DNA from: an uncultured Gammaproteobacteria bacterium
Lineage (GTDB): Bacteria; Patescibacteriota; Patescibacteriia; SBBC01; CAIJZX01
Direction: 5' to 3'
DNA: 64,000 bases
Assembly (NCBI GenBank): GCA_964383765.1
Contig: CAYLHT010000002.1
Span: 62,774-126,773 of the forward strand
Shown: piece after piece, positions 18,079 through 62,659 of the stretch
Layout: every line of letters begins with the position of its first letter
How positions within the stretch are numbered: position 1 is the first letter of the stretch
Translations under genes and position numbers: made by a program
Notes under the pieces: model-generated
What the model was told of the DNA's origin: nothing
Database searches by the model: none
What the model saw: only the letters and a program-made list of their open reading frames with translations

Positions 18079-18094
18079 TATACTCAAGGTGAGT

Positions 18095-27700: not shown

Positions 27701-30700
27701 GGTCAATCACATCATCTCCGCACGTGGCTGATCTTCAACCCACGAACACGTCGTCGAGCAACGTGGCAACTGATCCACAACCCGGACCGCCGGATGTCGG
27801 ATCAGCTCAAATCAAAGTTGCGGTGGCCACCAAGACTTCAGCTCCAGTCACGATTACGTATGATCCGACGAGCTGCCAGACGAGCGCCGACTGTGCCAAG
27901 AATCGCTATGGCGAAACGTGCGGGGGCTCACAATGTGTGAACAACCATTGTACCCCAGTCGTGAATGGCGTCGATCCGACCAGTGGTTCAATCGGGACGT
28001 GGACTACGGTCAAGGGCTGCTGGTTTAGTGGATACGATCCGAACAAAAGCAAGGTGACGTTCCTCGGTGGCAGCGGAACGGCCGATGATCGAGATGGTGT
28101 AGTTCCGAGCACAACCATTTGTGGACCGGCCGGTTCAACCTGGGAGAACGAACGGATTATTACTGAGGTTCCGAAGGTTGATATCGGCCCAAATGACCCA
28201 AGTAATGATGCGGCCACTGGTCCAGTCCAAGTCACGCGCGATGATGGCAAAACCGCCGCCTCAACCGGCAGCTTTACCGTCAACACCACGGTCCACCCCG
28301 GCCTCTGTCGGATTGTGCCGGATAATGCCTTGCCAAATGCGAGTATCACCATCAATGGTATCCGATTTGGCCCTGACGAACCGGCCAAACGAACGGCCCA
28401 GGACCAAGCTAATCTAACCAAGATCGGAACATCGACTCCAGTGCTGATGACAACGTACACGGCCTGGTCCGACACCGGCACCAAAGCGTCAATTGACACG
28501 GCTGTACCGGCGACTGCCGGTTTGGGCGACAACGAAGCTCGGGTCAAGAATGATGGCCAAGATTCGAATCCCTGGCCGTTCCACGTCAATGACCCGAATG
28601 CAACTGGTCCGGGGAGCTGTCCGGCTGGTCAGCAATGTTTCACCGATAATGCGGCGAATTGCACGGCGCTGGGTTTGGGCTGTGGGTTAACCGACCAATG
28701 TTGCCACGCCATCCCCACGATTGTCAGCTTCCAACCGCCGCAAAACAGTACGAATGTCTGTCGGAATATCGCTCCCCAAGTCACGCTCAGTCAGCCGCTC
28801 GATCCGAGTACCGTCAACACCAACACCATCCGTTATTACAATGGCAATGCGCAAGCGTTACCGAGTGTGGGGCTCGATAATCAAAGCAATCAATCGACGA
28901 TTACGGTTAGCCCGGGCGTCCTCAGCCCGGGCGCGGCGCAAGAGCTTGATTTAACAACCGCCAACTCGGCCGCTGTGACCGTTGACAACCCGAGTTTTGA
29001 AAATGGCACGAATGGAGTGCCAGACCAATGGGGGTCAACCCTCGTCAAGCAATCAACTGATGTCCCGCCCGGACACTCTGGTGTATCCGCTTTAGGTGAT
29101 TGTAGCGCCTGCACCGGTGGTCAAGCGTTCGCTGCGCAAAATATTCCCGGTACATCGGCACCGAATATCACGTACCACCTGACCGGCTGGGTCAAGGCCG
29201 AGGTGTCGTTGGCCAGTTCGGCTGGGTTGATCACCCGATGCTCGGCGACTGGGAATGGTTGCGGTTATGACCTAGGCAGCTCTGCTCCGGGCTTGTTTGA
29301 CAGTCGTGGCAGCAATGGCTGGGTCAAAATTGATGTGATTATTTCTAAAACCCAAGCCAATACCGATCTGATCTCGATTGACTGTTTCGCGAATGCTGGC
29401 TCTAAGATTTGGTGCGATGATATTTCCCTGACCCGGGAAACTGGCGGCGGTACATTGTTGCGCAGTGACCATGGCGTATTGGCCGATGTCAGTGGCTCGC
29501 CGTTGAAATTTACTGCCGGAACAAACATCTGCACGATTGATCATGTTGGGGTGACGCAGAGTAGTTATCTGCTGACGGCCGTCAATCAACTGGCCAACCC
29601 AATTCCTCGGGCCTATGCGTACAGCCAGAATGGCTGGATACTCCAGAATTTATCCACCTATAGCTGGGATTGGTCGTGGTTGAGTGGGAACAGCACTATA
29701 GCCACCGCGACCATGACCACGTTGCCGAACAGTTCGACCAGTCAAGCCAACGTGACGGCGAAAGCGAATGGCCAAACAACCGCCCAAGCCAAGGCGAAAG
29801 TCACCTTTAACTCCGCCAACCAGAACGACAAGTCGGAGAGAACTGGACAATCGGACATCACCGTCAGTTTTTGCAACAACCCATGGATCTTCAAAGATGA
29901 TGTGAATGGGACGAGCTGCACGTCGGGAACCTGTAATGTCTATAACTATCAAATGTTCTATTGTCGGGATCAAAGTGGCTCCGCGTTGTTACCCGACTTC
30001 AGTTACAAGGTGATCGAGGGTGTCAACGCGGCTGATCCCACCCGGCTCAAAAGCTATTTCTTTAAAGAATCACAAACCAGCCGCGATACGATTGGGGTCC
30101 TGATTTTCAAGAATGATGCCTTGCTCTCACCCAGCGACTGGTTCGCGCAGCGGTTCCCGTTAGAAACCGGCGCCGCGTCAGCGACCGTTAATGGGTATCC
30201 GGCGGTGAAAACTGGCACGACGACCTATGTCGGCGTGACCAACAACACCGGTACAAAACTCCAAGGGTTAATGTTCGTCTTCGACTATAATTCGAACAAT
30301 GCCTCAGATACAACCAAGAATATCTACGGACAAATTATTGATCACCTCTTGTTCAATCGCAATGACAACTCGGCGAATCGACAAGCGATTATCAACGATA
30401 CCAAGCGGGGACAAGACTTGGCCAGCGTCAAAGTCGCTTTGGACAACTATAAAACTCTGCACGGCGGGTATCCAAAGCTCGACAGCGGTACCTATCTGCC
30501 CGGGTATTCGACCTCGGCTTGGCCATCATGGCAATCTACCCTTGGTCAGACCCTGAACAAGTCATTGTCGACGGATCCCTCGAATGACTTTGCGCAAAGC
30601 TGTCCGACCGACTATGCCGCCTCGACCTGTTGGAGTGAAGCCAACCACGCTTTCCAGTGTCCGGATGACTCGCACGTCTATCTGTATCATTCGGATGGCT

Positions 30701-30837
30701 CAACCTACAGTCTGTATGGTCACATGGAATACACCGGCGCGGGCGGCTTTGCCAACACCAACTCCAGCGATGACCCCTGTAGCAGTCAAGCTGGGTCAAA
30801 CTGCGGTTGTTTCAATTACAAATTGACGGGATCCTAA
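24727..30837 (+). CDS. Giant (2036 aa) multi-domain extracellular protein: N-terminal two-helix TM hairpin, SbsA-type Ig-like domains, IPT/TIG-like domains, a CBM_4_9-like carbohydrate-binding module, and a C-terminal pseudopilin/GspG-like segment.
   Basis: N-terminus VVKWALGFVSLVAVSYLIYGGYLWLTAAGNEQRVEKAKQVILQAVIGIVIIILAWAIV (TrbC/VirB2-like hairpin). Ig-like starts NVPRSSAISMTFNT and NIPRNAALNVSFST. IPT-like PVITAVQPNQGQAGQCVSVIGDYF. CBM-like NPSFENGTNG...WGS...YHLTGWVKAE...IWCDDISLT. C-terminus DLASVKVALDNYKTLHGGYPKLDSGTYLPGY, which is T2SS pseudopilin-like. Confidence 0.8.
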   Translation: MLALRKTTISRLFIVGVITAAVIVVGGWFVVPRVTSALSIEPVGNTLGLASTDLVDIAINVVKWALGFVSLVAVSYLIYGGYLWLTAAGNEQRVEKAKQVILQAVIGIVIIILAWAIVLFAARTASNVTSGSNTNSGGGPPCPLCTGGTFNLTAVTSCSAAPNYADNVPRSSAISMTFNTDVDSQSVKKAVEASGAANNPKLQIEFCGTDPNCGTPSTPKPLNQQIYSGATTTGAQGSPKQEWVASGNTVTFYHLSFSTDPASSDNQYFEAGKYYRLTIPRHTSNTALLDMQSRVLENCGDDPLSGIVGDHCDTSNPDLIRWTFQTGSDTDGPALQVTSTQPSSTYLVASSNTKPDRNIPRNAALNVSFSTAIDPASVSTANFRVYKFTTPPDPNTGNGGVTDTNPLDPATFDIRVSPDGRGAWLQLKTTLFESFTWYKVVVEKIRNLCGTAMANPYTWVFETSDAAPGVAQVYPSDQFSHACPSTKVFIQYTTSMWKVGSGSFNCSPSAAGSYVTNGAMSPTPAGRGFTVVDQFNQADPYNTCKMYSFTPESANLTPGTTYHVGVDSSLVYDANGTKLNYGDTPPASTPSKGPWSFTVDPADKCYQPPVITAVQPNQGQAGQCVSVIGDYFLKPNTTSPGTNDKLTLGSQNQAVQSGAWNRQSIVSKVDATNLAAGQSHPYQVTVDYGGQIGLLKSNAMNFLLNSGTNTNGVCLYSLNPNQGQTGSGLVASGEGFGSYVVNQSKILASPSTTGAWPISSSNDWTATQINNISAATNVPVGQSQITAQISVQRSDGATSNALPFTVQAPTTGTPTVEENASCDIAQNITPSPNPRRGDTEVCKNALVSARFTMPMDLATLTAANITLRSCTSSTSCTNPVTAPVNQLGNNGFTMTPNGGFGRNTLYEVTISTGVKSDISVGNKPMASPYTWQFKTADTNDNCPVAGVTITPAGPLVERTTPYGINGNGEPLTALTVDQSCRVLNPGTGTFTWSITSSPHVADLQPTNTSSSNVATDPQPGPPDVGSAQIKVAVATKTSAPVTITYDPTSCQTSADCAKNRYGETCGGSQCVNNHCTPVVNGVDPTSGSIGTWTTVKGCWFSGYDPNKSKVTFLGGSGTADDRDGVVPSTTICGPAGSTWENERIITEVPKVDIGPNDPSNDAATGPVQVTRDDGKTAASTGSFTVNTTVHPGLCRIVPDNALPNASITINGIRFGPDEPAKRTAQDQANLTKIGTSTPVLMTTYTAWSDTGTKASIDTAVPATAGLGDNEARVKNDGQDSNPWPFHVNDPNATGPGSCPAGQQCFTDNAANCTALGLGCGLTDQCCHAIPTIVSFQPPQNSTNVCRNIAPQVTLSQPLDPSTVNTNTIRYYNGNAQALPSVGLDNQSNQSTITVSPGVLSPGAAQELDLTTANSAAVTVDNPSFENGTNGVPDQWGSTLVKQSTDVPPGHSGVSALGDCSACTGGQAFAAQNIPGTSAPNITYHLTGWVKAEVSLASSAGLITRCSATGNGCGYDLGSSAPGLFDSRGSNGWVKIDVIISKTQANTDLISIDCFANAGSKIWCDDISLTRETGGGTLLRSDHGVLADVSGSPLKFTAGTNICTIDHVGVTQSSYLLTAVNQLANPIPRAYAYSQNGWILQNLSTYSWDWSWLSGNSTIATATMTTLPNSSTSQANVTAKANGQTTAQAKAKVTFNSANQNDKSERTGQSDITVSFCNNPWIFKDDVNGTSCTSGTCNVYNYQMFYCRDQSGSALLPDFSYKVIEGVNAADPTRLKSYFFKESQTSRDTIGVLIFKNDALLSPSDWFAQRFPLETGAASATVNGYPAVKTGTTTYVGVTNNTGTKLQGLMFVFDYNSNNASDTTKNIYGQIIDHLLFNRNDNSANRQAIINDTKRGQDLASVKVALDNYKTLHGGYPKLDSGTYLPGYSTSAWPSWQSTLGQTLNKSLSTDPSNDFAQSCPTDYAASTCWSEANHAFQCPDDSHVYLYHSDGSTYSLYGHMEYTGAGGFANTNSSDDPCSSQAGSNCGCFNYKLTGS

Positions 30838-38400: not shown

Positions 38401-38797
38401 GGTTGTCCACAGTTTTTGAGAAGTGAGTGTCGGAAAAGATTGTCGAATGAACGCCGTTGAGGCGCATTTGCGATCAAAATGGCCGTTTTGGCTCATCTTG
38501 ACCACCACAAGATCTAGTAGTATACTGCTTGTGAGATCCACTACATCTAGTAGTTGAACCACCCGCGCCAGTCTAGAACATCACAGGCTGGCCGGCGAAG
38601 ACCAAAAGGCGAGAACATTCAACAATTCAACGGCCTTCAACCGTCGTCCCGTCAGGGCCGGCGGGTCCTGTCGAGGCGAGGGAGGCTTGTTTTACTGAGA
38701 TTTTGTGATGGATTGATGATGGGCCTATGCCCTCAGCTACGTCTAACTCTCCACCCATTCAAGCTATGCTATACTGTTCAGCCCGCGAGCGCCGATC

Positions 38798-38936
38798 ATG
38801 ATCCCGTTAGAGGTTCGGCTTGAAATCGATGTCTCGACAACGCCTCAAGCCATGCCCGGAGGATAAGTACGGTGTTCAGTCATGCCGGCGGGGTACGCGC
38901 AAGCTTTGATCATCAGTCTGAACCTCTAACGGGATG
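38798..38936. repeat. Inverted-repeat element family A, copy 1 (~139 nt): ATCCCGTTAGAGGTTC ... GAACCTCTAACGGGAT.
   Basis: 16-bp terminal inverted repeats seen directly. The 3' arm ends ...CGGGATGAAG, supplying the nrdR start codon. Confidence 0.6.
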
Positions 38937-39407
38937 AAGTGTCCATCTTGTCATCATGCCGAAACTAGCGTCACGGACTCGCGCGTGACCGATGAAGGCT
39001 TGGCCATTCGCCGTCGCCGCGAATGCGATCGTTGCGGTTACCGTTTTTCGACGGTTGAGGAGGTTGAAATCCTCAACTTGACGGTTATCAAGCGCGACGG
39101 CCGGCGCGAACCCTACCATCGCGAGAAATTGGAGTCCGGGTTGCACAAGGCCATGGAAAAACGACCGATCACTGCTCAAGCTTTCAAGAAGTTGGTCGGT
39201 CAAATCGAACGCGATATCCAAGTTCGTGGTCGGACCGAGATCACCTCGCAACAAATTGGCGAGATTATCATGAAACGGCTGCAACGCGTCGATCAAGTCG
39301 CCTACATTCGCTTCGCCTCAGTCTATCGCCAGTTCCAAGACGTCCAATCCTTCCAACGCGAGCTCAGCCGAATGGCCAAAGGCCGCTCCAGCAAGTCGAA
39401 AACCTAA
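38934..39407 (+). CDS. nrdR: Transcriptional repressor NrdR.
   Basis: [18 protein letters not shown]...[10 protein letters not shown] zinc ribbon plus ATP-cone. It directly precedes nrdJ. Confidence 0.9.
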
Positions 39408-39438
39408 CCTCTTCTTCATTCACTCATCTTCCGGTCCC

Positions 39439-42400
39439 ATGCCCGAGACGACGACTACCTCTGAACGCTTGCGCCAAAGCGCGGCGATTGTTGATCAACC
39501 GGTTGCAGTAGTTCCGAAGCGTCGCGGACCTGGCATGAAAATCCAGCGAGTGTTCACCATGGCCGGGCAAGATCCGCTCGAGCAGCTCCAGTATGAGAAC
39601 CGCTCGTCGGTCATCAAGAATCCGGATGGAACGGTGGTGAAAGAGATTAAAGAGGTGGAAGTGCCGGTCACCTGGAGCCAGGTTGCAACCGACATTTTAG
39701 CGCAGAAGTACTTCCGCAAGGCCGGTGTGCCGCAAACCCATCCTGACGGCCGGCCGATTCTCGGGACCGATGGTCGGCAAGTACTTGGTTCAGAACGCAG
39801 CGCTAAACAAGTTATCCGACGCTTAGCCGGCACGTGGCGCTGGTGGGGGCAAGAGCATGGCTACTTCTTCTCGCCTGATGATGCGCAAGCCTATCAAGAT
39901 GAAATGGAGCACATGCTCATTCGCCAAATGGGCGCTCCGAACTCGCCGCAGTGGTTCAACACGGGCTTGCAGTGGGCCTACAACATCACCGGTAGTCCGC
40001 AAGGCCACTTTTTCGTTGACCCGCAAACTGGCGTCTTGAAAGCTTCCACCGACGCCTACACGCACCCGCAACCGCACGCCTGCTTCATCCAGAAAATTAA
40101 CGATGACTTGGTGAATGAGGGTGGAATTTTTGACTTGGTCACTCGCGAGGCGCGCTTGTTCAAATTCGGATCCGGCACCGGCTCGAATTTTTCAAATTTG
40201 CGCGGCCGCGGTGAAAAACTGTCGGGCGGCGGCGGGAGTTCCGGCTTAATGTCCTTCCTGCGAATTTTTGATCGCAGCGCTGGCGCGATTCAATCCGGCG
40301 GGACGACGCGTCGAGCGGCAAAAATGGTGGTGGTCGATGTTGATCATCCGGACGTCGAAGAATTTATTGATTGGAAAGTTCAGGAAGAACAGAAAGTCGC
40401 GGACCTGGTCGCCGGCAGCAAAATCAATTCGGTTGAACTCAACCGAATTATGGAAACGGCCGTAACGGAGAATACCATCGACTACCACAAAAATGTTCGA
40501 CTCGGTCAAACGGTTCGACATGCACTGCAAAGACACGTGCCGCTCAACTACATCATGCGGGCATTAGCCTTGGTTGAGCAGGGTCATGATCAGCTCGATT
40601 TCCCGAGCTTCACTACGCACTTTGAAGGGGAAGCCTACCAAACGGTCTCCGGTCAAAACTCAAATAATACTGTTCGCGTCACCAATGCCTATATGGATTC
40701 CGTTGAACGCGATCAGCCGTGGAATCTGCTGTGGCGCACCACTCGTGATGTGGCCAAAACCATTCCGGCCCGACGGGTCTGGGAAGAAATCGCGTACGCG
40801 GCTTGGGCCTGCGCAGATCCGGGCTTGCAATTTGACACCACGATCAACGAATGGCATACCTGTCCCGAGGACGGCCGGATCAATGGTTCGAACCCGTGTT
40901 CGGAGTATATGTTCTTGGACGATACGGCTTGCAACCTAGCCTCGATTAATTTAGCGCACTTCTATAATGCTGACACCGGGACGTTCAACGTCGAAGCCTA
41001 CAAGCATGCCACCCGGCTGTGGACGATCACCTTGGAAATTTCGGTGTTGATGGCCCAGTTCCCCGGAAAAGAAATTGCGCGGCTGTCCTACATTTTCCGA
41101 ACGCTTGGCCTTGGATACGCCAACCTCGGCACGATTTTGATGATGATGGGCGTACCGTACGACTCGCCCCAAGCTTTAGCGATTGCCGGTAGCTTGACCG
41201 CCATCATGTGTGGCGAATCCTACGCCGCCTCGGCGGAAATGGCCTCACACCTCGGGGCGTTCCCCGGGTACGATCGCAATAAAGAACACATGCTGCGGGT
41301 GATTCGCAATCATCGTCGCGCGGCCTACAACGCCCCGGCGAGTGAGTATGAGGGCCTGACCATTCTGCCGATGGGGATTGATCCGAAATCGGCGCCGGAG
41401 TATCTGGTCAAGGCCGGTCGCGACGCCTGGGACAAAGCCGTCCAGTGGGGGAATGAATACGGTTTCCGCAATGCCCAAGTCACGGTCATCGCTCCGACGG
41501 GCACGATCGGGTTACTGATGGACTGCGACACGACGGGTGTTGAACCGGACTTCGCGATTGTGAAATTCAAAAAACTGGCCGGCGGCGGTTACTTCAAAAT
41601 TGTGAACTCGTCTGTCCCGAAAGCGTTGAAGCGCTTAGGCTATGCCGATCAGCAGATCAAAGAAATTGAGCAATACTGCAAAGGCTCGGGCAGCTTGATT
41701 GGCGCGCCGCATGTGAATCATGAGACGTTGAAAGCTAAAGGCTTAACCGGTGAAGACCTAGCCAAGATCGAATTAGCCCTCGACGGTGCGTTCGATATTC
41801 GTTTCGTCTTCAACCGGGCCACCCTCGGTGACGATATGCTGGTGCGGATGGGGCTAGAAAAGCACATGGAGAACCCGGCCCTGAACGTTCTGGAAGCACT
41901 TGGATTCACTAAAGATCAGATTACGTTAGCGAATGAATACGTCGTCGGCACGATGACGATCGAAGGCGCGCCGCACCTGAAAGAAGAACACTACCCGATC
42001 TTTGATTGCGCCAACACGTGCGGCGTCAAAGGTAAGCGCTACATTGCCTATCCGGCGCACGTCAAAATGCTGGCGGCGACCCAACCATTCATCTCCGGCT
42101 CGATCTCAAAAACCATCAACATGCCGTCCTCGGCCACGATTGAAGAAGTCAAACAGGTGTACTGGGATTCATGGAAAATGATGCTCAAGGCTGTGGCCCT
42201 GTACCGAGATGGGTCAAAGTTGTCACAGCCACTCAACAGCGTCTCCGAAGATGATGAGATCGCGGCCTTGGGCGCGGCTGATGATGACGTGACCGAGGTC
42301 ACACCTAAGGTTGTGAACGATGCCGCGGCGATTCGTGCGGTCAAACAAAAACTTCCGCCGAAGCGCGTCGGCTGGACACAGGAAGCGATTGTCGGCGGCC

Positions 42401-42945
42401 ACAAAGTCTTCATCCGCACCGGCGAATATAACGACGGTCGCTTGGGCGAAGTCTTTATCGATATGTACAAAGACGGAGCCGCCTACCGCTCGCTGATCAA
42501 CTGCTTCGCGATTCTGGTCTCAAAGAGTTTACAGTACGGCATGCCGCTGGAAGAACTGGTTGACACGTTCACCTTCACGCGTTTTGATCCGGCCGGCCCA
42601 GTCATTGGTCATCCCAACATCAAGATGGCGACGTCAATTCTGGACTACATTTTCCGATTGCTCGGCTACGAGTACTTGAACCGCGACGACCTCGTTCAGG
42701 TCAAACCAAACACATCGGAACAACCTGTCCAAGCCCAACTTCCAGGCACTGCGGTGATTGAAAAACCGAAAAACGTAGCCGCCACGGCCATCTCCATGTC
42801 CCCGGCGCCGGACAACTCTTTGGCTGTCGCCAAGGCTCAAGGCTTTACCGGCGACACCTGTGGCAATTGCGGTTCGATGAAAATGAAGCGCAATGGGTCG
42901 TGCATGTTGTGCATTGAGTGCGGGACGACCACGGGGTGCTCGTGA
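39439..42945 (+). CDS. nrdJ: Class II (adenosylcobalamin-dependent) ribonucleoside-diphosphate reductase NrdJ (1168 aa).
   Basis: Active-site region [21 protein letters not shown]. Length and order match long monomeric NrdJ. C-terminal Cys-rich zinc ribbon [22 protein letters not shown]. Confidence 0.9.
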
Positions 42946-43040
42946 AGAAGGTTAGAGGTAACAGGTTGTAGGTTTTAGGTCGGATGGTATACTGAACCTC
43001 AACCCTTTCACCTATAACCTTTAACCTAAATCCTATTCCT

Positions 43041-43412
43041 ATGCCCGATCCAAAACCATCCGCCGCCGATAAAATCAAGGCTGAAGCCAAGAAAGCCGGC
43101 GCCGAAGTCAAACAAGAATTGAATAAAATTCCCTCGACTTCCGACCAGAATATGCTGGCGGCCTTGTCGTATGTGTGGTGGTTATCGATTGTCTTGTTGC
43201 TGATCAAACGCAACGACGAGTACGTTCATTTCCACGCTAAGCAAGCCGTGATTCTGACCTTCTTGACCATTTTCTGGTGGATCCCAATCCTCGGACAGCT
43301 GTTGTTCGTCCTCGCCATTATCGGGATGATCGTCGGCTTCATTCAAGCCTGGCAGGGGAAACGGTATCAGCTGCCCGTGGTGTACGGCTGGAGTCAGAAG
43401 ATACATTTCTAA
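43041..43412 (+). CDS. Small membrane protein, DUF4870-like (123 aa).
   Basis: Two TM helices around an HFHAKQAV motif. Preceded by a TATACT -10 at about 42987. Confidence 0.5.
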   Translation: MPDPKPSAADKIKAEAKKAGAEVKQELNKIPSTSDQNMLAALSYVWWLSIVLLLIKRNDEYVHFHAKQAVILTFLTIFWWIPILGQLLFVLAIIGMIVGFIQAWQGKRYQLPVVYGWSQKIHF

Positions 43413-43425
43413 TTTGTCATTTCGA

Positions 43426-43500
43426 CGAGCCTGCGAGGAGAAATCTGCGCGGCAGAATTCAGCAACATAGATTTCTCACCCGCCGCGGGTTCGAAATGAC
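43426..43500. repeat. Nested inverted-repeat element family B, copy 1 (75 nt).
   Basis: GTCATTTCGA...GGAGAAATCT...AGATTTCTC...TCGAAATGAC: outer 10-bp and inner 9-bp stems. Sits between the 43041 gene stop and the 43509 gene start. Confidence 0.55.
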
Positions 43501-43508
43501 AGAAGTCT

Positions 43509-44081
43509 ATGCGTCGCGCGCCAACCAAACTTCGTCCCGCTGATCGCGGCCTAACCCACGCCTACATCGGCGATGGCAAGGGTAAAACCACGGCCGCGGT
43601 CGGTACGGCGGTGCGGGCGGCTGGCTACGGTTGGAAAGTTTTGTATTTGCAATTCATGAAAGAACCGAAGTGGCCAAGCGGGGAGCGGGAGAGTCTGAGA
43701 AAACTTGGTATCGACGTTGATGTTCTCGGACAAGGCTGGTATAAAATTTTGAACGATAAGAAATCTGAACGCGAGCATAAAGAAGCAGCTTTGGGCGCAC
43801 TGAAAACCTTACGCGAAAAAATATTTTCCGGACAGTATCAACTCGTGGTAGCTGACGAACTGGGTTCAGCAGTGGAGGAGAAAATTTTGGATCGTAAACC
43901 CGTCGAGAAAATGCTCAAGGATCGACAGTCAAATGACCGCGCGAAGATAGTTCATCTGATTTGGACTGGCCACAAAAAAATCGGGTGGATGTTGAAGTAC
44001 GCGGATTTAGTGACGGAGATGAAGATGGTGAAACATCCGTATTACAAAGGGATTATTGCCACCCGAGGGTTAGATTACTGA
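43509..44081 (+). CDS. Cob(I)alamin/corrinoid adenosyltransferase (CobA/CobO/BtuR family).
   Basis: P-loop-like signature HAYIGDGKGKTTAAVGTAVRAAGYGWKVLYLQFMK. Size ~190 aa. Confidence 0.7.
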   Translation: MRRAPTKLRPADRGLTHAYIGDGKGKTTAAVGTAVRAAGYGWKVLYLQFMKEPKWPSGERESLRKLGIDVDVLGQGWYKILNDKKSEREHKEAALGALKTLREKIFSGQYQLVVADELGSAVEEKILDRKPVEKMLKDRQSNDRAKIVHLIWTGHKKIGWMLKYADLVTEMKMVKHPYYKGIIATRGLDY

Positions 44082-44902
44082 GCTGGCGCCGGTGGCGGAA
44101 CTGAAATCGATGTCTTGGCCTGGTCGGCCTGAAGTTTTTTGTGGATCGGCCAATACAGCAGAAGCATAATTCCCAAAATAATTGCGGTCCAGCTCGTTTT
44201 ACTGAGTGAGCCGATCGTCAGAACCATCAAGACGTAGAGAATTTTATGGACCCGTGTCGAAGTCATGATAATTTCCCAAAGAATCCAAACCGCAATCGCT
44301 ACATCGACGCCTGCTAGAATACTACCGAACGCACCGAGCGGCTTGGCCTTGTCAACCAAACCTTGTGCAGTTGCCAGTAATACGAGCAATGTCGCGAGGA
44401 CATACACTGACACAAAGAAAATATTAATGCCCCACAACCACTTGGTGTGATGGTCGGTTAATGCCACTCGGCGGCGATGGCGGACGCTTTCAGTTTCAAA
44501 ATGGGAAGCCGGTGACCAATACAGGAAGCGACCTTTCCAGGCGTACTGAATCAGACCAGCATATAGGATACATTCAAACAAAAATCCGAAGAGAGTATCA
44601 GTTGTCCAAAATGGTTTCCCATCAATTCGTGGTGAAAGAACGTTCAGGAAAATATCAACAATCGGAAATGCGACGGCATAGATTTTCCAGCCACGATCAC
44701 TCAGCCACCGGCGTCGGAACGCGATCAAGACTAACACGACATAGGAAGGAATTGAGACGAACACATTGGTCCAATCACTCCAATTGAGGTCTGTGTATGA
44801 AGCTGGGTTAAGGACATCGATCAAATACAAAACCGAAAAAATAATCCACGGCCAAGAGATTTTTTTGAACCAGCGGGTCGAGGGCAGCTGAGTATTCTCC
44901 AT
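44075..44902 (-). CDS. Hypothetical polytopic membrane protein (~276 aa).
   Basis: Start set at MENTQLPSTRWFKK. The first 64 codons of the tracked ORF run into a GC-rich hairpin repeat and lack coding character. About seven TM helices. Confidence 0.5.
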   Translation of the reverse strand: MENTQLPSTRWFKKISWPWIIFSVLYLIDVLNPASYTDLNWSDWTNVFVSIPSYVVLVLIAFRRRWLSDRGWKIYAVAFPIVDIFLNVLSPRIDGKPFWTTDTLFGFLFECILYAGLIQYAWKGRFLYWSPASHFETESVRHRRRVALTDHHTKWLWGINIFFVSVYVLATLLVLLATAQGLVDKAKPLGAFGSILAGVDVAIAVWILWEIIMTSTRVHKILYVLMVLTIGSLSKTSWTAIILGIMLLLYWPIHKKLQADQAKTSISVPPPAPAQ

Positions 44903-45012
44903 ACACTCAGTATACCATGGGTTCGTTGGAGCGACGTTGACGACCTCAATCGGGTCACGTACACTATCCACAAGGTAACCCGGCGCAATTCCGGGAGGGT
45001 CCCGCCACCGTG

Positions 45013-45086
45013 ACCTCACCCTAGCCCTCTCCTCAGGAGAGGAGAGGGGAGGAACTCGGACACCGTCTCCGCCTCGTCCGCGGAGT
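45013..45086. repeat. GC-rich hairpin repeat family C, copy 1.
   Basis: CCTCACCCTAGCCCTCTCCTC-AGGA-GAGGAGAGGG...GAACTCGG plus a second hairpin CTCCGC-CTCGTCC-GCGGAG. Homologous to 50700-50745 (CCTCACCTAACCTCTCCTCTGCAAGGAGAGGAACTGCGGG). Confidence 0.5.
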
Positions 45087-45174
45087 AAAGACAAGACCTT
45101 CGTGGAAAGGCTGGCATTCTCAGAATGCCTGCTGTTCTACGACGGCAGGGGATTTATTCATTAGCTTCACTCTT

Positions 45175-45588
45175 ATGAAGCTCCGCAAAATCCTGCTGCC
45201 CGCCCGCGCCAAGCGCCTGTGGCGGTTGGGCGGACCCGTCGTCCTGAGCCTGGTCGTGCTCGGCGCCGGTTGCAGCCTAATGCAAACTATTAACGTCAAC
45301 GGATCGGCCGGGAATACCAACACCGCAGTCAACGCCAGCGCCAACGCGAACATCAGCGCGTCAATTACCTACAGTGGACAAGCCGGCAAAAATGCTCTAG
45401 AGTTACTCACCGCCAGTCATAAGGTCGACACGTCCGCACAGGGCTTTGTCAACGCCATTGATAGCATCAAGCCGGGCGACCACCAGTACTGGGCCTTCTA
45501 CATCAACGGTAAATTATCCGATGTCGGTGCGAAAGACTACCAAACGAAAACCACAGACGCGATCGAGTGGAAACTCGAAAGCTTCTAG
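45175..45588 (+). CDS. Secreted or lipoprotein-like DUF4430-like protein (transcobalamin-like B12-binding fold candidate).
   Basis: Signal/lipobox-like VVLGAGCS. C-terminus GFVNAIDSIKPGDHQYWAFYINGKLSDVGAKDYQTKTTDAIEWKLESF matches the DUF4430 pattern (WxYxVNG...GA..Y.l.dGD.i.w). Confidence 0.55.
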   Translation: MKLRKILLPARAKRLWRLGGPVVLSLVVLGAGCSLMQTINVNGSAGNTNTAVNASANANISASITYSGQAGKNALELLTASHKVDTSAQGFVNAIDSIKPGDHQYWAFYINGKLSDVGAKDYQTKTTDAIEWKLESF

Positions 45589-45790
45589 GGCTGGAAAAAC
45601 GGGCGCCGCGCGCAGAGCGCGCGGCGCCCACAAGCCAATCCGTCGCTCAGTCCGGCTAACGGTTCAACGCGGATCACGGGCTGTGCCGATTGCACAAGCT
45701 CTCAGCAGCTTAGTGCCGGCAGTGCACCACCACGAAACCGTGACCGCCGAAGCCGTTCATCAACTCCCGACGTCGGTCGGATGGACGCCG

Positions 45791-46258
45791 ATGGTGGAGA
45801 ATCCACCCCGACCAACAGTCCAATTGAGCCAACCGCGGGCTTGGCAAATTTCTTGGATTGGGGCCGCGGTCGCTGTGGCTAGTCTGATGGTGATTTCCGT
45901 GGCGGTCGCCGGATGGTACCAGTCACCGCAGTCAACGACCCAAGGACACATTTTGGGTGTTTCAGCTACGCAACCACTGCAGGTCACCGTCACCGTCTCT
46001 GCGCCATTCTCACACGCTAGCGCCACGACTATTCTGTCGACGGGCACGTTGACCGAAGCACTGGCGCGAGCCGCCTCGGCTCTCAACTCATCACTCGGGT
46101 ACACCAGTCGCGGTTCGTCGATCTACCTAACGAGTTTTCTTGAGACTTCGAATAGTCCAGCTGGGCATTGGGGGATTGCCGTCAACGGGGCACCGGTGAC
46201 CGACTTGAGTCTAGTCACCCTGAATCAAGGTGACCAGGTGACGGCTACTTGGCAATGA
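45791..46258 (+). CDS. Second DUF4430-like protein with N-terminal TM anchor.
   Basis: Start chosen at MVENPPRP... because the upstream part of the tracked ORF overlaps the previous gene. TM WIGAAVAVASLMVISVAVAGW. C-terminus GYTSRGSSIYLTSF...GHWGIAVNGAPVTD...GDQVTATWQ. Confidence 0.5.
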   Translation: MVENPPRPTVQLSQPRAWQISWIGAAVAVASLMVISVAVAGWYQSPQSTTQGHILGVSATQPLQVTVTVSAPFSHASATTILSTGTLTEALARAASALNSSLGYTSRGSSIYLTSFLETSNSPAGHWGIAVNGAPVTDLSLVTLNQGDQVTATWQ

Positions 46259-46433
46259 TCCCGTTAGAGACTGTTCCAGCTGGTGGTCGCCAACTCAATG
46301 ACCAAACGAGTCCATTTACAAATTCACCTGTGTTTTCAGCCAACTACTCATCAGTCGCAACCTACGGTGGTCGTGAGTCATGCCCATGTTGTATGTTCAG
46401 CTTCTATTCATTCGAGCAATCTCTAACGGGATG
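46256..46433. repeat. Inverted-repeat element family A, copy 2 (~178 nt): ATCCCGTTAGAGAC ... ATCTCTAACGGGAT.
   Basis: Same terminal repeats as copy 1. Internal shared 9-mer AGTCATGCC. The 5' end overlaps the stop of the 45791 gene (TGATCCCG). The 3' arm ends CGGGATGAAA, supplying the start of the 46431 gene. Confidence 0.6.
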
Positions 46434-46982
46434 AAAATAATTTCTGCCCTGACCTGGTACGCCCTGGGACTGATTGTGATTGGGGCTGGATTACGTGTAG
46501 TTCGGCATTTTGGTTACCTGCCCTTGCCCCCAAACGTGGCACCGGTCAGCGCGCTGGCGATGTTCAGCGCTATTGGTTTGCCGCGGCGATATGCCTTTGT
46601 GGTACCGCTGGGATTAATGCTGGTAGCCGACATGGTCATCGGTTTTGATCTGCTACCTATCACCCTGAGCATTTACGCTTGCTTTGCCGTTAGTTACTTG
46701 ATTGGCCGTTGGATCAATCGACAGTTCAGCGTCACTCGTTTGGTGATCGGAACGTTGACTGGTTCAATTATTTTTTTTCTGGTCACCAACGCCGCGGTTT
46801 GGGCGTTCAGTTCGATTTATGTGCAGACTGGGACTGGACTACTGCAGGCATATATTGCCGGCCTGCCGTTTTTCCGCAACACGGTGCTCGGCGACCTCGG
46901 CTACACCGGCCTGTTCTTTGGCCTGTACCAGTTAGCCGTGGTATACTCTCGTCGACGGGCACCCGTCGCCGTGCATGACTGA
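46431..46982 (+). CDS. Small polytopic membrane protein (184 aa), ECF-transporter S-component-like (CbrT-like candidate).
   Basis: About six TM helices, size typical of ECF S components. Adjacent to DUF4430 genes. The start ATG lies inside the 3' arm of inverted-repeat element A2. Family call is contextual. Confidence 0.4.
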   Translation: MKIISALTWYALGLIVIGAGLRVVRHFGYLPLPPNVAPVSALAMFSAIGLPRRYAFVVPLGLMLVADMVIGFDLLPITLSIYACFAVSYLIGRWINRQFSVTRLVIGTLTGSIIFFLVTNAAVWAFSSIYVQTGTGLLQAYIAGLPFFRNTVLGDLGYTGLFFGLYQLAVVYSRRRAPVAVHD

Positions 46983-47865
46983 ATTTAAGCGCTATCAACC
47001 TCGTCGCAGTGCGCCGGCCTTTCCCTGGCGGAAATGGCTGGTGTGGGCGGTGATTGTCGTCGTCCTATTTCTGATTGGCAAGGCCATCTTTAGTCACGGC
47101 GGATCAAAGAAGCGAGCGACCACGAATAGGAACCAAGTCGACATTGCGTTGGTCAACGACAACACGAACGCCTCAGACCTACCACTCAACGGCAACAGCA
47201 ATGCCAACACCAATAGCGCACCGGTCGTGAGCGAGTCATGGGCGAATTTTTCGGTCAGCAGTTGCAGCGGAACAATCGGGACGGTGACGACCACCAAGAA
47301 GTATGTGGCTTTGACCTTTGATTTGGCGGCCGCCAACGATCAAGCCAAGCAGCTCATCGGTTACTTACAGCAACAGAAAATCCCGGCTAGCTTCTTCAGT
47401 AGTGGCAGCTTCGCCGACACCAACGCGGACTTCGTGAAATCAGTCGCCAGCTCAGGGTTCTCAGTCTACAGCCGCGGACAAAAAACCGTGGACATGACGA
47501 CGCTGGCTAAAGCCGAGGTGGTGACATCCCTAACCTCGGCTGAAGAGAACATTAGCGCCGCCACGGGTCAAACGACTAAACCTTTGTTCCGACCGCCGTT
47601 TGGCAACACCAGTACTGATTTGGTGGCTACTGCCAAAGAACAAGGCTACTGCGCGATCACCTGGACGGTGGATGGACTCGACTGGAAAGATGGGGTGACG
47701 GCTGACCAGGTCAATCAGCGGGTGGCTGACAAACTTCAAGCCGGCGCAGTGATTGACTTGCACGCCGGGTACGACGTTACCCAAACGGCAGTCACCATGA
47801 TTGTGGCCAAGCTCAAAACGCTCGGCTACACGCCGGTCAGTTTGGCCACCTTATTACAATCGTAA
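46975..47865 (+). CDS. Polysaccharide deacetylase (NodB homology domain) with N-terminal TM.
   Basis: YVALTFDLAA...ASFFSSG and PLFRPPFGNTS...AITWTVDGLDWKD are NodB-domain motifs. N-terminal TM plus an Asn-rich linker. Confidence 0.75.
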   Translation: MTEFKRYQPRRSAPAFPWRKWLVWAVIVVVLFLIGKAIFSHGGSKKRATTNRNQVDIALVNDNTNASDLPLNGNSNANTNSAPVVSESWANFSVSSCSGTIGTVTTTKKYVALTFDLAAANDQAKQLIGYLQQQKIPASFFSSGSFADTNADFVKSVASSGFSVYSRGQKTVDMTTLAKAEVVTSLTSAEENISAATGQTTKPLFRPPFGNTSTDLVATAKEQGYCAITWTVDGLDWKDGVTADQVNQRVADKLQAGAVIDLHAGYDVTQTAVTMIVAKLKTLGYTPVSLATLLQS

Positions 47866-47951: not shown

Positions 47952-49154
47952 ATGTCTGAATTTCCACAACCGCCACGCGTTTCCCTCGGATTACCACTGC
48001 TGATTGCCGCGCTCGTCGGCGGTCTGATTGGAGGTGCCTTTGGCTATCGTTTAGCTAGTTCGGCCCTGGGTGGAACGCATTCTGCGGCCACCTCCGCCTC
48101 AACCAAGACTCAAACCTTGGCGGTGCAGGAAGACTCGGCCTCGGTGGACGTCGTCCAGAAAGCCAACCCGGCGGTCGTTAGCATTATCATCAGCAAAGAC
48201 TTCTCGAAAATTTACGGCCAACAACCGTCCTCGCCATTTGATAACTTTTTCGGATTTCCCCTCGGCCAGCAAGTCCCCCAAGGTCAACAAGATATTGGCG
48301 GCGGGAGTGGTTTCATTGTTGGGTCGGACGGGTTGATTGTCACCAATAAACACGTCGTCGACGATGACCAGGCGACCTACACTGTCGTCATGAACGACGG
48401 CAAACGTTACGATGCCAAAGTCCTGGCCAAAGATCCGACAAACGATATTGCCATTGTCAAAATCGAGGCAACCGGATTGACGACCTTGCAACTCGACGAT
48501 TCGGATAAGGTCGTGATTGGCGAAACCGTGATCGCGATCGGCAATGCCCTAGGCGAATATCGTAACACCGTCACGAAAGGCATCATCTCCGGAAAATCCC
48601 GAACCATCACCGCCGGCGATTCAACCACCGGCCAATCGGAAACGCTGGAAGATGTCTTCCAAACCGACGCGGCGATTAACCCCGGCAACTCCGGCGGACC
48701 GTTGCTGAACTTGGCTGGCCATGTGATTGGCATGAATAGCGCGGTCAATTCATCCGGTCAACTGATTGGCTTTGCCATTCCGATCAACGCCGTCAAACGC
48801 GACCTCGATAGCGTGAATGCGTCAGGAAAAATTGTAAAGCCGTTCCTGGGTGTGCGCTATGTCTTAGTCTCAAAAGCATTAGCGCAGAATAACAAACTGC
48901 CCGTTGATCATGGGGCGCTGATCCAAGCCGACGACAGTACGAATAATCCAGCGGTCGTGTCTGGTTCACCGGCCGATAAAGCTGGCTTAGTCGCCGGTGA
49001 TATCATCGTGTCGCTGAATGGTACGGACATTAGCACTGATCATACGTTGGCCGGCTTACTGGGCACATACAACGTCGGCGATACCGTGACGTTAAAGGTC
49101 TACCACCAAGGGAAGGTGAAAGACGTGCAGGTGAAATTGGAAGAGCGGAAGTAG
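47952..49154 (+). CDS. htrA: HtrA/DegP-family serine protease with PDZ domain.
   Basis: Trypsin-like triad context GSGFIVGSDGLIVTNKHVV, DIAIVKI, GNSGGPLLN. C-terminal PDZ-like domain. N-terminal TM. Confidence 0.85.
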   Translation: MSEFPQPPRVSLGLPLLIAALVGGLIGGAFGYRLASSALGGTHSAATSASTKTQTLAVQEDSASVDVVQKANPAVVSIIISKDFSKIYGQQPSSPFDNFFGFPLGQQVPQGQQDIGGGSGFIVGSDGLIVTNKHVVDDDQATYTVVMNDGKRYDAKVLAKDPTNDIAIVKIEATGLTTLQLDDSDKVVIGETVIAIGNALGEYRNTVTKGIISGKSRTITAGDSTTGQSETLEDVFQTDAAINPGNSGGPLLNLAGHVIGMNSAVNSSGQLIGFAIPINAVKRDLDSVNASGKIVKPFLGVRYVLVSKALAQNNKLPVDHGALIQADDSTNNPAVVSGSPADKAGLVAGDIIVSLNGTDISTDHTLAGLLGTYNVGDTVTLKVYHQGKVKDVQVKLEERK

Positions 49155-57151: not shown

Positions 57152-57229
57152 TGGCGGACCCAAGGGGATTTGAACCCCTGATCTTCTCCGTGACAGGGAG
57201 ACGTGTTAACCGGGCTACACCATGGGTCC
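57152..57229 (-). tRNA. tRNA-Asp (anticodon GUC) with encoded CCA.
   Basis: Manual fold of the reverse complement: acceptor GGACCCA/TGGGTCC, D-arm GTGT...ACAC, anticodon stem TCTCC/GGAGA with loop CTGTCAC, T-arm AGGGG-TTCAAAT-CCCCT, discriminator G, CCA. Confidence 0.85.
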
Positions 57230-60898: not shown

Positions 60899-61300
60899 GG
60901 GGATGTTCAAACGTCGAACGATCGTTGAGAACTCAAGACTATCGTGCCGACACGCCAACAACGTCGTAAAAATGTTGGAATGAGATACGTGCCAAAACAC
61001 TTCTCAGCAGACTTCGGGACAGCGTAGCTTCGGCTTTCGCCCAACCGTCGTTTGTTCCTGCCGTCGCCTAAACCGCGACTGCCATCCGTCCAGGCGACTC
61101 CGACTAGCCTGATCGCGGGTGTCATTTCTGTCGGGCCGGTGGGAGACTGTTCAGCGCTCTCACTGCGTACTGCCTGAACGCCGTCAGCAGGATTCTGGCC
61201 GACTCTGATCCTGGTGACGTAACTTGAGCCGGCTGCGCACGGGACCAGTAGTCTTCGGTTCTTCGTCGCCACGCGGGTGCAAGACCCGCCATCTCCACCA
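60899..61300 (+). ncRNA. ssrA: tmRNA (ssrA), ~402 nt.
   Basis: 3' end ACGCGGGTGCAAGACCCGCCATCTCCACCA parallels E. coli ACGCGGGUUCAACUCCCGCCAGCUCCACCA. The 5' GGGGATG pairs with CATCTCC including the G3-U70 wobble. A candidate tag frame ends ...FAQPSFVPAVA-TAA. An intrinsic terminator follows. Confidence 0.75.
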
Positions 61301-61515: not shown

Positions 61516-61994
61516 GGTTTGAGTCTTTTCCTTTTCGGCGCGCCCAAGCGTCCGCGTCGTGGTCGAGTTGCAAGTCCTTTAGTCCACTCGCGAGTCACGT
61601 GGTTGGATTGCCAACCAAGTCGACGATGAAGTTTTTGAATATATGGGTTGTTCGTGACCGCGTAGGCTAGCAGGAAGTAAGCTTTGCGTCGTCGTGCCTC
61701 GCTTTCCATCGCTTCCAACAACGTTCGACCGATTCCCTGACTGCGGTATTTTTTTGACACGACAATATACTGAGATAAATATCCGGCCACGATTTTTTCG
61801 GCAATCGTAAATCCAATGATTTGTTTATTCATCACCGCTATCAGAAAAATGTGTTTACCTTTCACTACGCGTTGGTAATATTCCAGCGGCAGGTACCACC
61901 CCGGCGCAATCGCGATTTCCGGAACTCGGCCGAGTCTTTCGACGGCACGGCAATCAGACAGACGGGCAGCGCGAATTGAAAATGTAATTTTCAT
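61512..61994 (-). CDS. GNAT-family N-acetyltransferase.
   Basis: Acetyl-CoA binding motif region VVSKKYRSQGIGRTLLE. Confidence 0.7.
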   Translation of the reverse strand: MKITFSIRAARLSDCRAVERLGRVPEIAIAPGWYLPLEYYQRVVKGKHIFLIAVMNKQIIGFTIAEKIVAGYLSQYIVVSKKYRSQGIGRTLLEAMESEARRRKAYFLLAYAVTNNPYIQKLHRRLGWQSNHVTREWTKGLATRPRRGRLGAPKRKRLKP

Positions 61995-62437: not shown

Positions 62438-62659
62438 GCGGAAAGTGTACCAGAAAAGTAGCTTCGCCGCTGTCATGGTGCCTGCCCGCCGCATGGCTTC
62501 GGCAGGCGGGAGCCCGCTCCACTGACCCTTCGACTAGGGTCCTCCGCTGTGCTTCGGACCCTCGCCTCTCGTTAGCCTCGGGTCGGCTCAGGGTGACAGT
62601 GGAGCGGAGCCACGCAGTGGCTAGTCGAACCATCAGCGGCGATAGTGTATACTTTCGGT

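Follow-up and report, generated by a model that had tools for sequence, protein, structure and literature searches.

The locus raises the question of how a bacterium with a small genome supplies adenosylcobalamin (AdoCbl) to a ribonucleotide reductase (RNR) that depends on it. The window, a 64-kb stretch of DNA analysed here as a whole, belongs to a tiny-genome, groundwater-type bacterium of Candidatus Kerfeldbacteria. With biosynthetic abilities reduced to a minimum, Patescibacteria must take their cofactors from hosts or neighbours. In the literature searched, there is no description of vitamin B12 import serving a class II RNR in Patescibacteria, and nothing on B12 riboswitches or ECF transporters in this group. 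Within the 64-kb window, neither cob/cbi genes nor a second RNR were found. The suggestion in the original prediction that the organism may be a B12 auxotroph with NrdJ as its only RNR concerns the whole genome, of which the window covers a small part. The original prediction proposed that the region contains a B12 uptake and activation cluster for NrdJ, like that of Lactobacillus, and this proposal is strengthened by the riboswitches, synteny, fusion protein and fold described below. With a probability of roughly 0.78, the region represents a two-unit vitamin B12 salvage system, with uptake and activation serving NrdJ. Its features are listed in Table 1.

Table 1. Features of the putative B12 salvage region; positions are those of the 64-kb window.
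Feature	Position	Strand	Basis
Sigma70-like promoter TTGACC-17-TATACT and two 17-nt direct repeats	38498-38554	+	Read from sequence; repeat search
nrdR, transcriptional repressor of RNR genes	38934-39407	+	TIGR00244, PF22811 and PF03477
nrdJ, AdoCbl-dependent class II RNR, long form, 1168 aa	39439-42945	+	NF005736, Pfam
Small membrane protein, DUF4870-like	43041-43412	+	Sub-threshold PF09685; synteny
CobA/CobO/BtuR-type ATP:co(I)rrinoid adenosyltransferase	43509-44081	+	PF02572; PDB CobA matches
Orphan membrane ORF	44075-44899 or beyond	-	Between cobA and riboswitch
Leader of uptake operon: promoter-like site, putative divergent cobalamin riboswitch, terminator	44937-45165	+	RF00174, alignment
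Promoter-like site in leader	44937-44965	+	
Putative cobalamin riboswitch aptamer core, divergent	about 44952-45075	+	RF00174 and alignment to relatives
Intrinsic-terminator-like hairpin, then T-rich tail	45128-45149	+	
DUF4430 protein a, 137 aa	45175-45588	+	PF14478
DUF4430-like protein b, 155 aa	45791-46258	+	hhalign, Foldseek
DUF6580 membrane protein, proposed corrinoid transporter	46425-46982	+	PF20221; fold; synteny

Ribonucleotide reductase and adenosyltransferase unit

The genes nrdR, class II nrdJ and corrinoid adenosyltransferase, named in the original prediction, are all present on the plus strand. NrdR scores 187.6 bits against TIGR00244 (cut-off 124.65) and contains the Zn_ribbon_NrdR (PF22811) and ATP-cone (PF03477) domains. 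NrdJ exceeds the equivalog cut-off of NF005736 (1800 bits, cut-off 1737) and comprises the class II N-terminal domain (PF08471, E 3.4e-36), PF02867 and the TSCPD domain (PF12637). The adenosyltransferase, with a readable P-loop GDGKGKTT, belongs to PF02572 (166.5 bits, E 8.6e-49) and matches the Salmonella CobA structures 1G5R and 4HUT in the PDB (E 2e-19); its score against TIGR00708 is below the stricter NCBIfam equivalog cut-off (131.8 against 167.75). The enzyme is of the CobA type rather than of the PduO type. Between nrdJ and cobA lies a gene for a small membrane protein scoring 22.3 bits against PF09685, under the gathering score of 25; a DUF4870-like gene is kept in this position in five Kerfeldbacteria-type loci (L001, L002, L003, L005, and L006).

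Upstream of nrdR, within positions 38505-38554, the 17-nt sequences CCACAAGATCTAGTAGT and CCACTACATCTAGTAGT form a pair of direct repeats with a spacing of 33 nt. The same layout of promoter and repeats is kept in L002, L005, and L006. The repeats, which we take to resemble the NrdR-box consensus, are probably tandem NrdR boxes controlling nrdR-nrdJ. The first unit would thus comprise nrdR-nrdJ-(small membrane protein)-cobA, transcribed from this promoter, and would provide the AdoCbl-dependent RNR together with a CobA-type enzyme predicted to make AdoCbl by adenosylating imported corrinoid. The NrdR-box-like repeats and the DUF4870-like gene, as well as the minus-strand ORF and the riboswitch-like leader considered below, had been overlooked by the earlier reader.

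Putative riboswitch leader and DUF4430 proteins

The second unit would be an uptake operon, consisting of a promoter, a cobalamin riboswitch with a terminator, and the genes for DUF4430a, DUF4430b and DUF6580. Its leader is situated immediately 5' of the DUF4430 genes. In a search of 351 nt, RF00174 matched the leader at 44977-45045 (E 6.5e-4) with 22.6 bits, under the Rfam gathering score of 31.5 bits for this family (clan CL00101). The leader core, GGTAACCCGGCGCAATTCCGGGAGGGTCCCGCCACCGTGA, aligns with elements that score above the threshold in L007 (47.1 bits), L008 (36.5 bits) and L011 (36.2 bits), and as judged from this alignment it is homologous to these elements, which occupy the syntenic position. 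Among 32 related loci scanned for riboswitches, a member of the cobalamin clan (RF00174, RF01482 or RF01689) was detected above the gathering score in 14, directly 5' of the operon that ends with the DUF6580 gene; no riboswitch reached the threshold in the remaining 18. Loci L003 and L005 gave no riboswitch match even at E <= 1, though both align with the other elements. From the MAFFT alignment of the riboswitches, RNAalifold recovered no more than a single short stem besides the P4/P5 hairpin. Several of the Kerfeldbacteria-type elements are devoid of the P6 extension. The leader in the window is predicted to be a cobalamin riboswitch with a terminator, responding to its ligand.

The minus-strand ORF preceding the leader has no Pfam or NCBIfam match. 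A homologue search returned only the ORF itself, and it is absent from all 80 related loci; its public 314-aa call would extend into the riboswitch. Having neither homologues nor synteny, it was rejected as a member of the system, and it probably lies outside the B12 pathway.

Of the two DUF4430 binders originally predicted, the first is recognized by Pfam and the second only by comparison of profiles and of structures. DUF4430a scores 51.7 bits against PF14478, for which the gathering score is 23.8. Its signal peptide, in which a Cys (GAGC) is conserved, makes it a probable surface lipoprotein, and it is a candidate corrinoid binder. Single-sequence searches of the PDB with DUF4430a and with the DUF6580 protein yielded nothing useful, and profiles were needed. 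The DUF4430 profile, built from the related loci, matches the beta-domains of haptocorrin, intrinsic factor and transcobalamin.

In protein b, a membrane anchor at the N terminus is followed by a divergent domain that resembles transcobalamin beta. The protein matches neither PF14478 nor any other Pfam model at E <= 1, either as a 270-aa ORF or as a 153-aa C-terminal fragment (45797-46258). Its C-terminal domain, modelled by AF2 with a pLDDT of about 80, is matched by the DUF4430 profile in hhalign (probability 89.9%, E 1.7e-6). The best Foldseek match of the model is the DUF4430 structure 3U7Z of Ruminococcus gnavus, and next come transcobalamin, haptocorrin and intrinsic factor with their beta-domains; 3U7Z and the transcobalamin beta-domains are matched with probability 1.0 and E 2e-4 to 1e-3. 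The model can be superposed on 5NO0, the beta-domain of transcobalamin in isolated form. Because hhalign and Foldseek indicate the same fold, protein b is probably a divergent member of DUF4430. It is a lineage-specific paralogue, with only three homologues among 5.8 billion proteins, and occurs in five Kerfeldbacteria-type loci. Its true start is at 45791, in agreement with the public 155-aa call; the 270-aa reading was rejected, since the 115 codons at its beginning run across DUF4430a and the intergenic stretch.

Membrane protein of the DUF6580 family

The membrane protein encoded after the DUF4430 genes has the six helices foreseen in the original prediction. Its AF2 model (pLDDT 89.4) consists of six long helices arranged in the S-component fold. 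The start adopted here, 46425, agrees with the homologues; the public call starts at 46386, with a further alternative at 46380. With 139.4 bits against PF20221 (gathering score 27), the protein belongs to DUF6580, a family to which 6276 of 1.84 billion representative proteins belong at E <= 1e-3. The invariant polar residues of DUF6580 are R37, N50, D82, N135, R164 and D170, numbered as in the 198-aa call. Neither DUF6580 nor PF20221 is mentioned in the literature searched.

Genomic context was analysed in 80 fetched DUF6580 loci, mostly from Patescibacteria. Closed chromosomes that carry DUF6580 include OY970382.1 and OY969116.1. In 68 of the 80 loci, a DUF4430 gene with the same orientation lies upstream of the DUF6580 gene at a distance of no more than 5 kb, and in 43 the two are adjacent. 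NrdJ is encoded nearby in 26 of the 80 loci and CobA in 23; in some loci (L030, L058, L062, and L077) the neighbours are unrelated. The same gene order is observed in many independent genomes and, therefore, the cluster is more than a chance arrangement. In the Bacteroidota loci L061 and L074, a riboswitch is followed by genes for a TonB-dependent receptor and DUF6580, without DUF4430. In one natural fusion protein, P0180, DUF6580 is joined to DUF4430 through a seventh transmembrane helix, a layout that places DUF4430 outside the cell. As judged from the present comparisons, the DUF6580 family is firmly linked to vitamin B12, and the protein is probably a corrinoid transporter.

The possibility that DUF6580 is not a transporter, serving the DUF4430 proteins instead as a membrane anchor or receptor, or being unrelated to B12 and associated by conserved synteny alone, appears most improbable. 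In 13 loci, synteny likewise extends to downstream genes for a polysaccharide deacetylase and HtrA, which have no logical tie to B12. However, the association of DUF6580 with B12 genes spans distant lineages with differing gene orders, is found behind three classes of riboswitches, and persists in the Bacteroidota loci that lack DUF4430; moreover, DUF6580 shares its fold with S components, which translocate vitamins.

The substrate deserves separate consideration. B12 riboswitches also govern transporters of cobalt and of B12 precursors. This would fit a DUF6580 protein carrying another B12-related substrate, such as cobinamide or another corrinoid precursor, a lower ligand, or cobalt, as would the transport of cobinamide by CbrT in addition to B12 (PMC5997447). 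Against it, no genes for corrinoid remodelling or assembly (cobS/T/U, cbiB/Z) were found in the window or among the recurrent neighbours, and the recurrent partners, NrdJ, CobA and the transcobalamin-beta-like binders, need or bind a complete corrinoid. Such a substrate is therefore considered improbable, and the transport of a complete corrinoid is preferred.

In a Foldseek search of the PDB, the best match of the DUF6580 model was BtuM with bound hydroxocobalamin (8OVV; probability 1.0, TM 0.57/0.63), followed only by the ECF S components PanT, RibU, FolT, and ThiT; these matches have weak E-values (0.023 in the case of BtuM), and the lead of BtuM over the other S components is marginal. BtuM of Thiobacillus denitrificans is a solitary S-component-like B12 transporter that operates without an ECF module (PMC6072759; PDB 6FFV, 8OVV). 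Its gene co-localises with btuR, encoding adenosyltransferase, and btuB, and its Cys80 is invariant, essential and cobalt-ligating (PMC6072759). The Bacteroidota DUF6580 loci resemble this context in that a TonB-dependent receptor is followed by a small membrane protein. BtuM is, however, found mostly in Proteobacteria, whereas the 80 DUF6580 loci are mostly patescibacterial and pair the protein with DUF4430 binders. No BtuM chain in the PDB was matched by phmmer or by the DUF6580 family profile at E <= 10. Cys80 has no counterpart in DUF6580: the 18 invariant columns of the family alignment contain neither Cys nor His, and the single Cys of the window protein occupies a variable position within a helix. 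Since this hallmark cysteine is missing, the binding chemistry must differ. Lacking both an invariant Cys and sequence similarity, DUF6580 was rejected as a member of the BtuM family.

The original prediction had assigned the protein as a putative ECF S component. It could, accordingly, be a true group II S component that docks on a shared EcfT-EcfA-EcfA' module encoded elsewhere and imports B12 at the expense of ATP, like CbrT. The fold agrees with this assignment, and so does the sole match of the DUF6580 family profile in the PDB, chain 6FNP_A of ECF-CbrT (E 7.7e-4 over 115 residues), which is weak and partial. In addition, the homologue P0165 shows a weak match to ECF-ribofla_trS (E 0.003). 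The genes of group II S components are usually not linked to those of the module, so that the missing nearby module is compatible with ECF dependence (PMC5997447). On the other hand, the protein of the window matched none of the Pfam S-component models at E <= 0.1, and the CbrT fragment itself is assigned by Pfam to PF12822, whereas the window protein falls into PF20221. CbrT relies on a shared ECF module (PDB 6FNP), but the 64 kb of the window contain none, and none lies at a distance of up to about 7 kb from any of the 80 DUF6580 loci; ABC-ATPase-like ORFs number only two among 949 neighbours in these loci and are absent from the window. The position of the Bacteroidota genes behind a TonB-dependent receptor is also typical of the module-independent BtuM. 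The label of ECF S component is thus unproven, because Pfam assigns the protein only to DUF6580 and no module lies nearby. A solitary mode of action, similar to that of BtuM, is no less likely: it is given about an even chance, while dependence on an ECF module seems rather unlikely.

Proposed uptake route and related systems

The cluster nrdJ-cbrS-cbrT-pduO of Lactobacillus delbrueckii, with which the original prediction compared the locus, was confirmed in the literature (PMC5997447). Like the window, it brings together a class II RNR, a membrane protein with the S-component fold, a corrinoid adenosyltransferase and an accessory exported protein. The parallel extends to the logic of the cluster but not to orthology of its parts. 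The adenosyltransferase of the window is of the CobA type, that of L. delbrueckii of the PduO type; the RNR of the window is a long NrdJ accompanied by NrdR, and its uptake genes are preceded by a putative cobalamin riboswitch. The two clusters are best described as analogous, with non-orthologous components.

According to the proposed mechanism, abundant coenzyme would cause the riboswitch to end transcription of the uptake operon. When the coenzyme is scarce, two surface-exposed transcobalamin-beta-like proteins, the lipoprotein-like DUF4430a and the membrane-anchored DUF4430b, would be produced. They may catch external corrinoid and pass it to DUF6580, which would move it across the membrane by toppling of its six-helix, S-component-like structure. 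DUF6580 would act like BtuM, without a dedicated ECF module, and the direction of uptake could be set by metabolic trapping, through adenosylation by CobA and binding to NrdJ. The identities of the genes, the fold, and the linkage to riboswitches and partner genes are observed, whereas the substrate, the transfer from one protein to the next and the way transport is energised are inferred.

A broader reading, offered tentatively and at somewhat less than even odds, joins two propositions. One is that DUF6580 represents a third independent family of B12 transporters with the S-component fold, after CbrT and BtuM, free of an ECF module and fed by tethered transcobalamin-beta-like binders. If true, this would be a third S-component-like type of B12 transporter, without the cysteine chemistry of BtuM. 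Riboswitch linkage, synteny, fusion and fold together give this family, which comprises more than 6000 sequence clusters, a specific function that can be tested.

The other proposition concerns the cobalamin carriers of animals. In other Patescibacteria, a separate SQHop_cyclase-like surface protein with an alpha/alpha-toroid is encoded between DUF4430 and DUF6580. When two such proteins were compared with the PDB, one resembled squalene cyclases and the other gave nothing relevant, and neither resembled transcobalamin. Within the same tentative reading, the alpha/alpha-toroid protein and DUF4430 may together correspond, in many lineages and as separate bacterial proteins, to the two domains of the animal carriers; if true, this would give a bacterial context to the DUF4430 domain of the latter. 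The C-terminal beta-domain of transcobalamin, haptocorrin and intrinsic factor corresponds to DUF4430, whereas the DUF4430 proteins of the window, tethered to the membrane, consist of a single domain and lack the alpha6/alpha6 domain.

Gene content and leaders of the vitamin B12 cluster

The sequence is assigned to a Candidatus Kerfeldbacteria-type Patescibacterium, since the closest homologues and loci are all labelled so. Its B12 cluster spans 38.9-47.0 kb, with the B12-related genes all on the + strand, and comprises an nrdR-nrdJ-cobA unit followed by a proposed uptake operon of two DUF4430-type genes and a DUF6580 gene (Table). The predicted nrdR-nrdJ pair is present, and the enzyme described as a CobO-like adenosyltransferase belongs to the CobA/CobO/BtuR family; it matches Salmonella CobA structures in the PDB (E 2e-19) and does not reach the TIGR00708 cut-off. 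The 64-kb window contains no cob/cbi gene and no ribonucleotide reductase other than nrdJ.

Features of the B12 cluster and of other parts of the window
Feature	Position	Strand	Evidence or remark
tRNAs	21352-21426; 57155-57229		
nrdR promoter with repeats	38498-38554		TTGACC-17-TATACT
Hairpin leader, first copy	38798-38936		
nrdR	38934-39407	+	TIGR00244, 187.6 bits
nrdJ	39439-42945	+	NF005736, 1800 bits, above equivalog cut-off; class II N-terminal domain present
Small DUF4870-like membrane protein	43041-43412	+	below Pfam threshold
CobA/CobO/BtuR adenosyltransferase	43509-44081	+	PF02572, E 8.6e-49
Orphan multi-helix membrane ORF	44075-44899 (public 314-aa call, 44075-45019)	-	between cobA and riboswitch
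Promoter-like site	44937-44965		precedes aptamer
Cobalamin riboswitch match	44977-45045		RF00174, 22.6 bits
Terminator-like hairpin	45128-45149		followed by T-rich tail
DUF4430 protein a	45175-45588	+	PF14478, 51.7 bits
DUF4430-like protein b	start 45791	+	155-aa public gene call
Hairpin leader, second copy	46255-46432		
DUF6580 membrane protein	start 46425	+	PF20221, 139.4 bits
Polysaccharide deacetylase	46975-47865		
HtrA	47952-49154		
tmRNA and smpB, adjacent	60899-61300 and 61991-62494	+ and -	tmRNA RF00023, 62.7 bits

The promoter upstream of nrdR bears two 17-nt direct repeats with a spacing of 33 nt, separated from the gene by a leader of about 370 nt, and the arrangement is kept upstream of nrdR in three other DUF6580-bearing loci (L002, L005, and L006). 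The repeats look like tandem NrdR boxes by comparison with the published consensus.

Two copies of one long hairpin leader share the identical 15-nt arms ATGATCCCGTTAGAG and CTCTAACGGGATGAA, between which lie about 105 and 150 nt. The last bases of the 3' arm are an ATG start codon, that of nrdR in the first copy and that of the DUF6580 gene in the second. Within the window, the 10-mer CCCGTTAGAG has exactly four occurrences, all in the hairpin arms; none of 80 related loci contains it. The paired leaders could serve the common control of translation, or could be a MITE-like repeat specific to this genome. In another Kerfeldbacterium (L004, 2266-8047), NrdJ is encoded in two matching pieces with an unrelated 1.5-kb ORF (4808-6346) in between, which could be an intein or intervening element.

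Probable riboswitch and DUF4430 proteins of the proposed uptake operon

The RF00174 match, 130 nt upstream of the gene for DUF4430 protein a, is below the gathering score of 31.5 bits (E 6.5e-4 in a 351-nt search). Its matched core GGTAACCCGGCGCAATTCCGGGAGGGTCCCGCCACCGTGA and the conserved stretch ACTCGGACACCG just downstream are common to the leaders of L002-L006, L008, and L011, the terminator-like hairpin is also conserved, and Kerfeldbacteria-type elements in the same position exceed the threshold in L007, L008, and L011 (47.1, 36.5, and 36.2 bits). In 14 of the 32 loci scanned, the operon that ends in DUF6580 is directly preceded by a cobalamin-clan riboswitch that reaches the gathering score, and all three Rfam models (RF00174, RF01482, and RF01689) occur among these. 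The two strongest (67.4 and 59.7 bits) belong to Bacteroidota MAGs.

The original prediction of two DUF4430-like binders holds. Protein a passes PF14478, and its signal peptide with a conserved Cys suggests a lipoprotein. Protein b, for which a 270-aa ORF proved too long, the true gene being the 155-aa call, has a short tail and a single membrane-spanning helix, which anchors it, followed by a domain of roughly 100 aa. It is not recognized by Pfam and has only three homologues among 5.8 billion proteins; its assignment stands because its domain aligns with a profile of DUF4430 proteins from 60 related loci (hhalign probability 89.9%, E 1.7e-6), and its AF2 model (pLDDT about 80 in the domain) is closest to 3U7Z, a DUF4430 structure from Ruminococcus gnavus; next come transcobalamin and its isolated beta-domain, haptocorrin and intrinsic factor, each with probability 1.0. 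The DUF4430 profile itself matches the beta-domains of transcobalamin, haptocorrin (E 3.6e-4) and intrinsic factor by sequence.

A scan of species-representative genomes yielded at least 561 confirmed DUF6580 loci. The 80 analysed are mostly from Patescibacteria of many classes, with a few Bacteroidota and Ignavibacteriota and one archaeon-labelled MAG. A DUF4430 gene lies upstream of DUF6580 on the same strand within 5 kb in 68 of them, directly adjacent in 43, while NrdJ, CobA and NrdR are encoded nearby in 26, 23, and 16 loci, respectively. A frequent order in many lineages is DUF4430, a large SQHop_cyclase-like surface protein, an optional second DUF4430 and DUF6580. These alpha/alpha-toroid proteins (L014, 7729-9969; L021, 7734-9443; L007, 827-2356), some also bearing a DUF4430-like stretch, lie behind cobalamin riboswitches in many Patescibacteria. 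Paired with DUF4430, they are reminiscent of the two domains, alpha and beta, of transcobalamin; PDB searches with two of these proteins gave squalene cyclases for one, nothing relevant for the other, and no direct sequence match to transcobalamin. In a metagenomic protein of 337 aa (P0180), DUF6580 is naturally fused, through a seventh transmembrane helix, to DUF4430; such a topology would be expected of a DUF4430 domain acting extracellularly on an S-component with its C terminus inside.

The DUF6580 protein and its proposed role in corrinoid uptake

The membrane protein, predicted to be a six-helix S component, does have six long helices and an S-component-like fold in its AF2 model (pLDDT 89.4), while in Pfam it matches DUF6580 alone and no S-component family. 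The model is closest to hydroxocobalamin-bound BtuM (8OVV, TM 0.57/0.63), followed by PanT, RibU, FolT and ThiT, with no other credible match; the fold E-values are modest. A 25-sequence family profile has exactly one match in the PDB, chain A of 6FNP (E 7.7e-4), a "Membrane protein" whose aligned fragment matches PF12822 and which, because of its length of 182 aa, is taken to be CbrT. Identity with BtuM itself is ruled out by the lack of a BtuM sequence match and of any invariant Cys or His in the DUF6580 alignment; in BtuM, Cys80 is invariant, essential and cobalt-ligating (PMC6072759).

The gene identities, the fold and the associations are observed, whereas substrate, hand-off and energy source are inferred in the following scheme. 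NrdR would control nrdR-nrdJ and probably cobA, and the riboswitch would turn the uptake operon off at sufficient coenzyme. Both DUF4430 proteins would bind corrinoid at the cell surface, DUF6580 would move it across the membrane by toppling, as S components do, and CobA would adenosylate it for use by NrdJ.

Transport could be energized through an ECF module, and group II S-component genes are normally unlinked to their module (PMC5997447). The window contains no such module, and only two ABC-ATPase-like ORFs occur among the 949 neighbouring ORFs of the 80 loci. In Bacteroidota (L061, 542-3403; L074, 3795-6647), the order is riboswitch, TonB-dependent receptor and DUF6580, without DUF4430; BtuM was originally predicted by the same genomic logic (PMC6072759). 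Because linked modules are wholly lacking, and in view of this Bacteroidota context, ECF dependence appears somewhat less likely, and ECF-independent transport by DUF6580 is tentatively favoured, with a probability of about 0.5.

The cluster was suggested to mirror nrdJ-cbrS-cbrT-pduO of Lactobacillus. It would work like that of L. delbrueckii (PMC5997447), though its parts are not orthologous: DUF6580 stands in for CbrT (PF12822), the adenosyltransferase is of the CobA rather than the PduO type, and a riboswitch is added. The association of DUF4430 with class II ribonucleotide reductase is not new, since DUF4430 proteins adjoining these genes, and "additional lipoprotein components" of cobalamin ECF transporters, have been annotated in lactobacilli (PMC9963975). 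A role for DUF6580 in B12 transport appears to be a new assignment; NCBI names the family merely "putative transport protein," and no mention of it was found in searchable literature.

Neighbouring genes and other features

The orphan ORF has no family in Pfam/NCBIfam, no homologue in a protein search and no synteny in the 80 loci; in its long version it would cover part of the riboswitch, which is on the other strand, indicating a later start (44899) or a spurious ORF. The genes for DUF6580 and the polysaccharide deacetylase overlap by 8 nt at the DUF6580 stop codon, and the deacetylase gene may be co-transcribed with the uptake genes, a functional link not being evident; deacetylase and HtrA genes follow DUF6580 in 13 loci. 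Downstream of DUF6580, 17 loci encode a conserved protein of some 470 aa, mostly on the opposite strand; the L014 member (10496-11902, - strand), the sole one tested, has no Pfam match. Elsewhere in the window (25-13488, 24727-30837, and 15653-21228), giant ORFs of 4487 and 2036 aa and proteins with dockerin-, cohesin- and Ig-like domains and TSP3 repeats form a typical Patescibacteria repertoire of large surface proteins.
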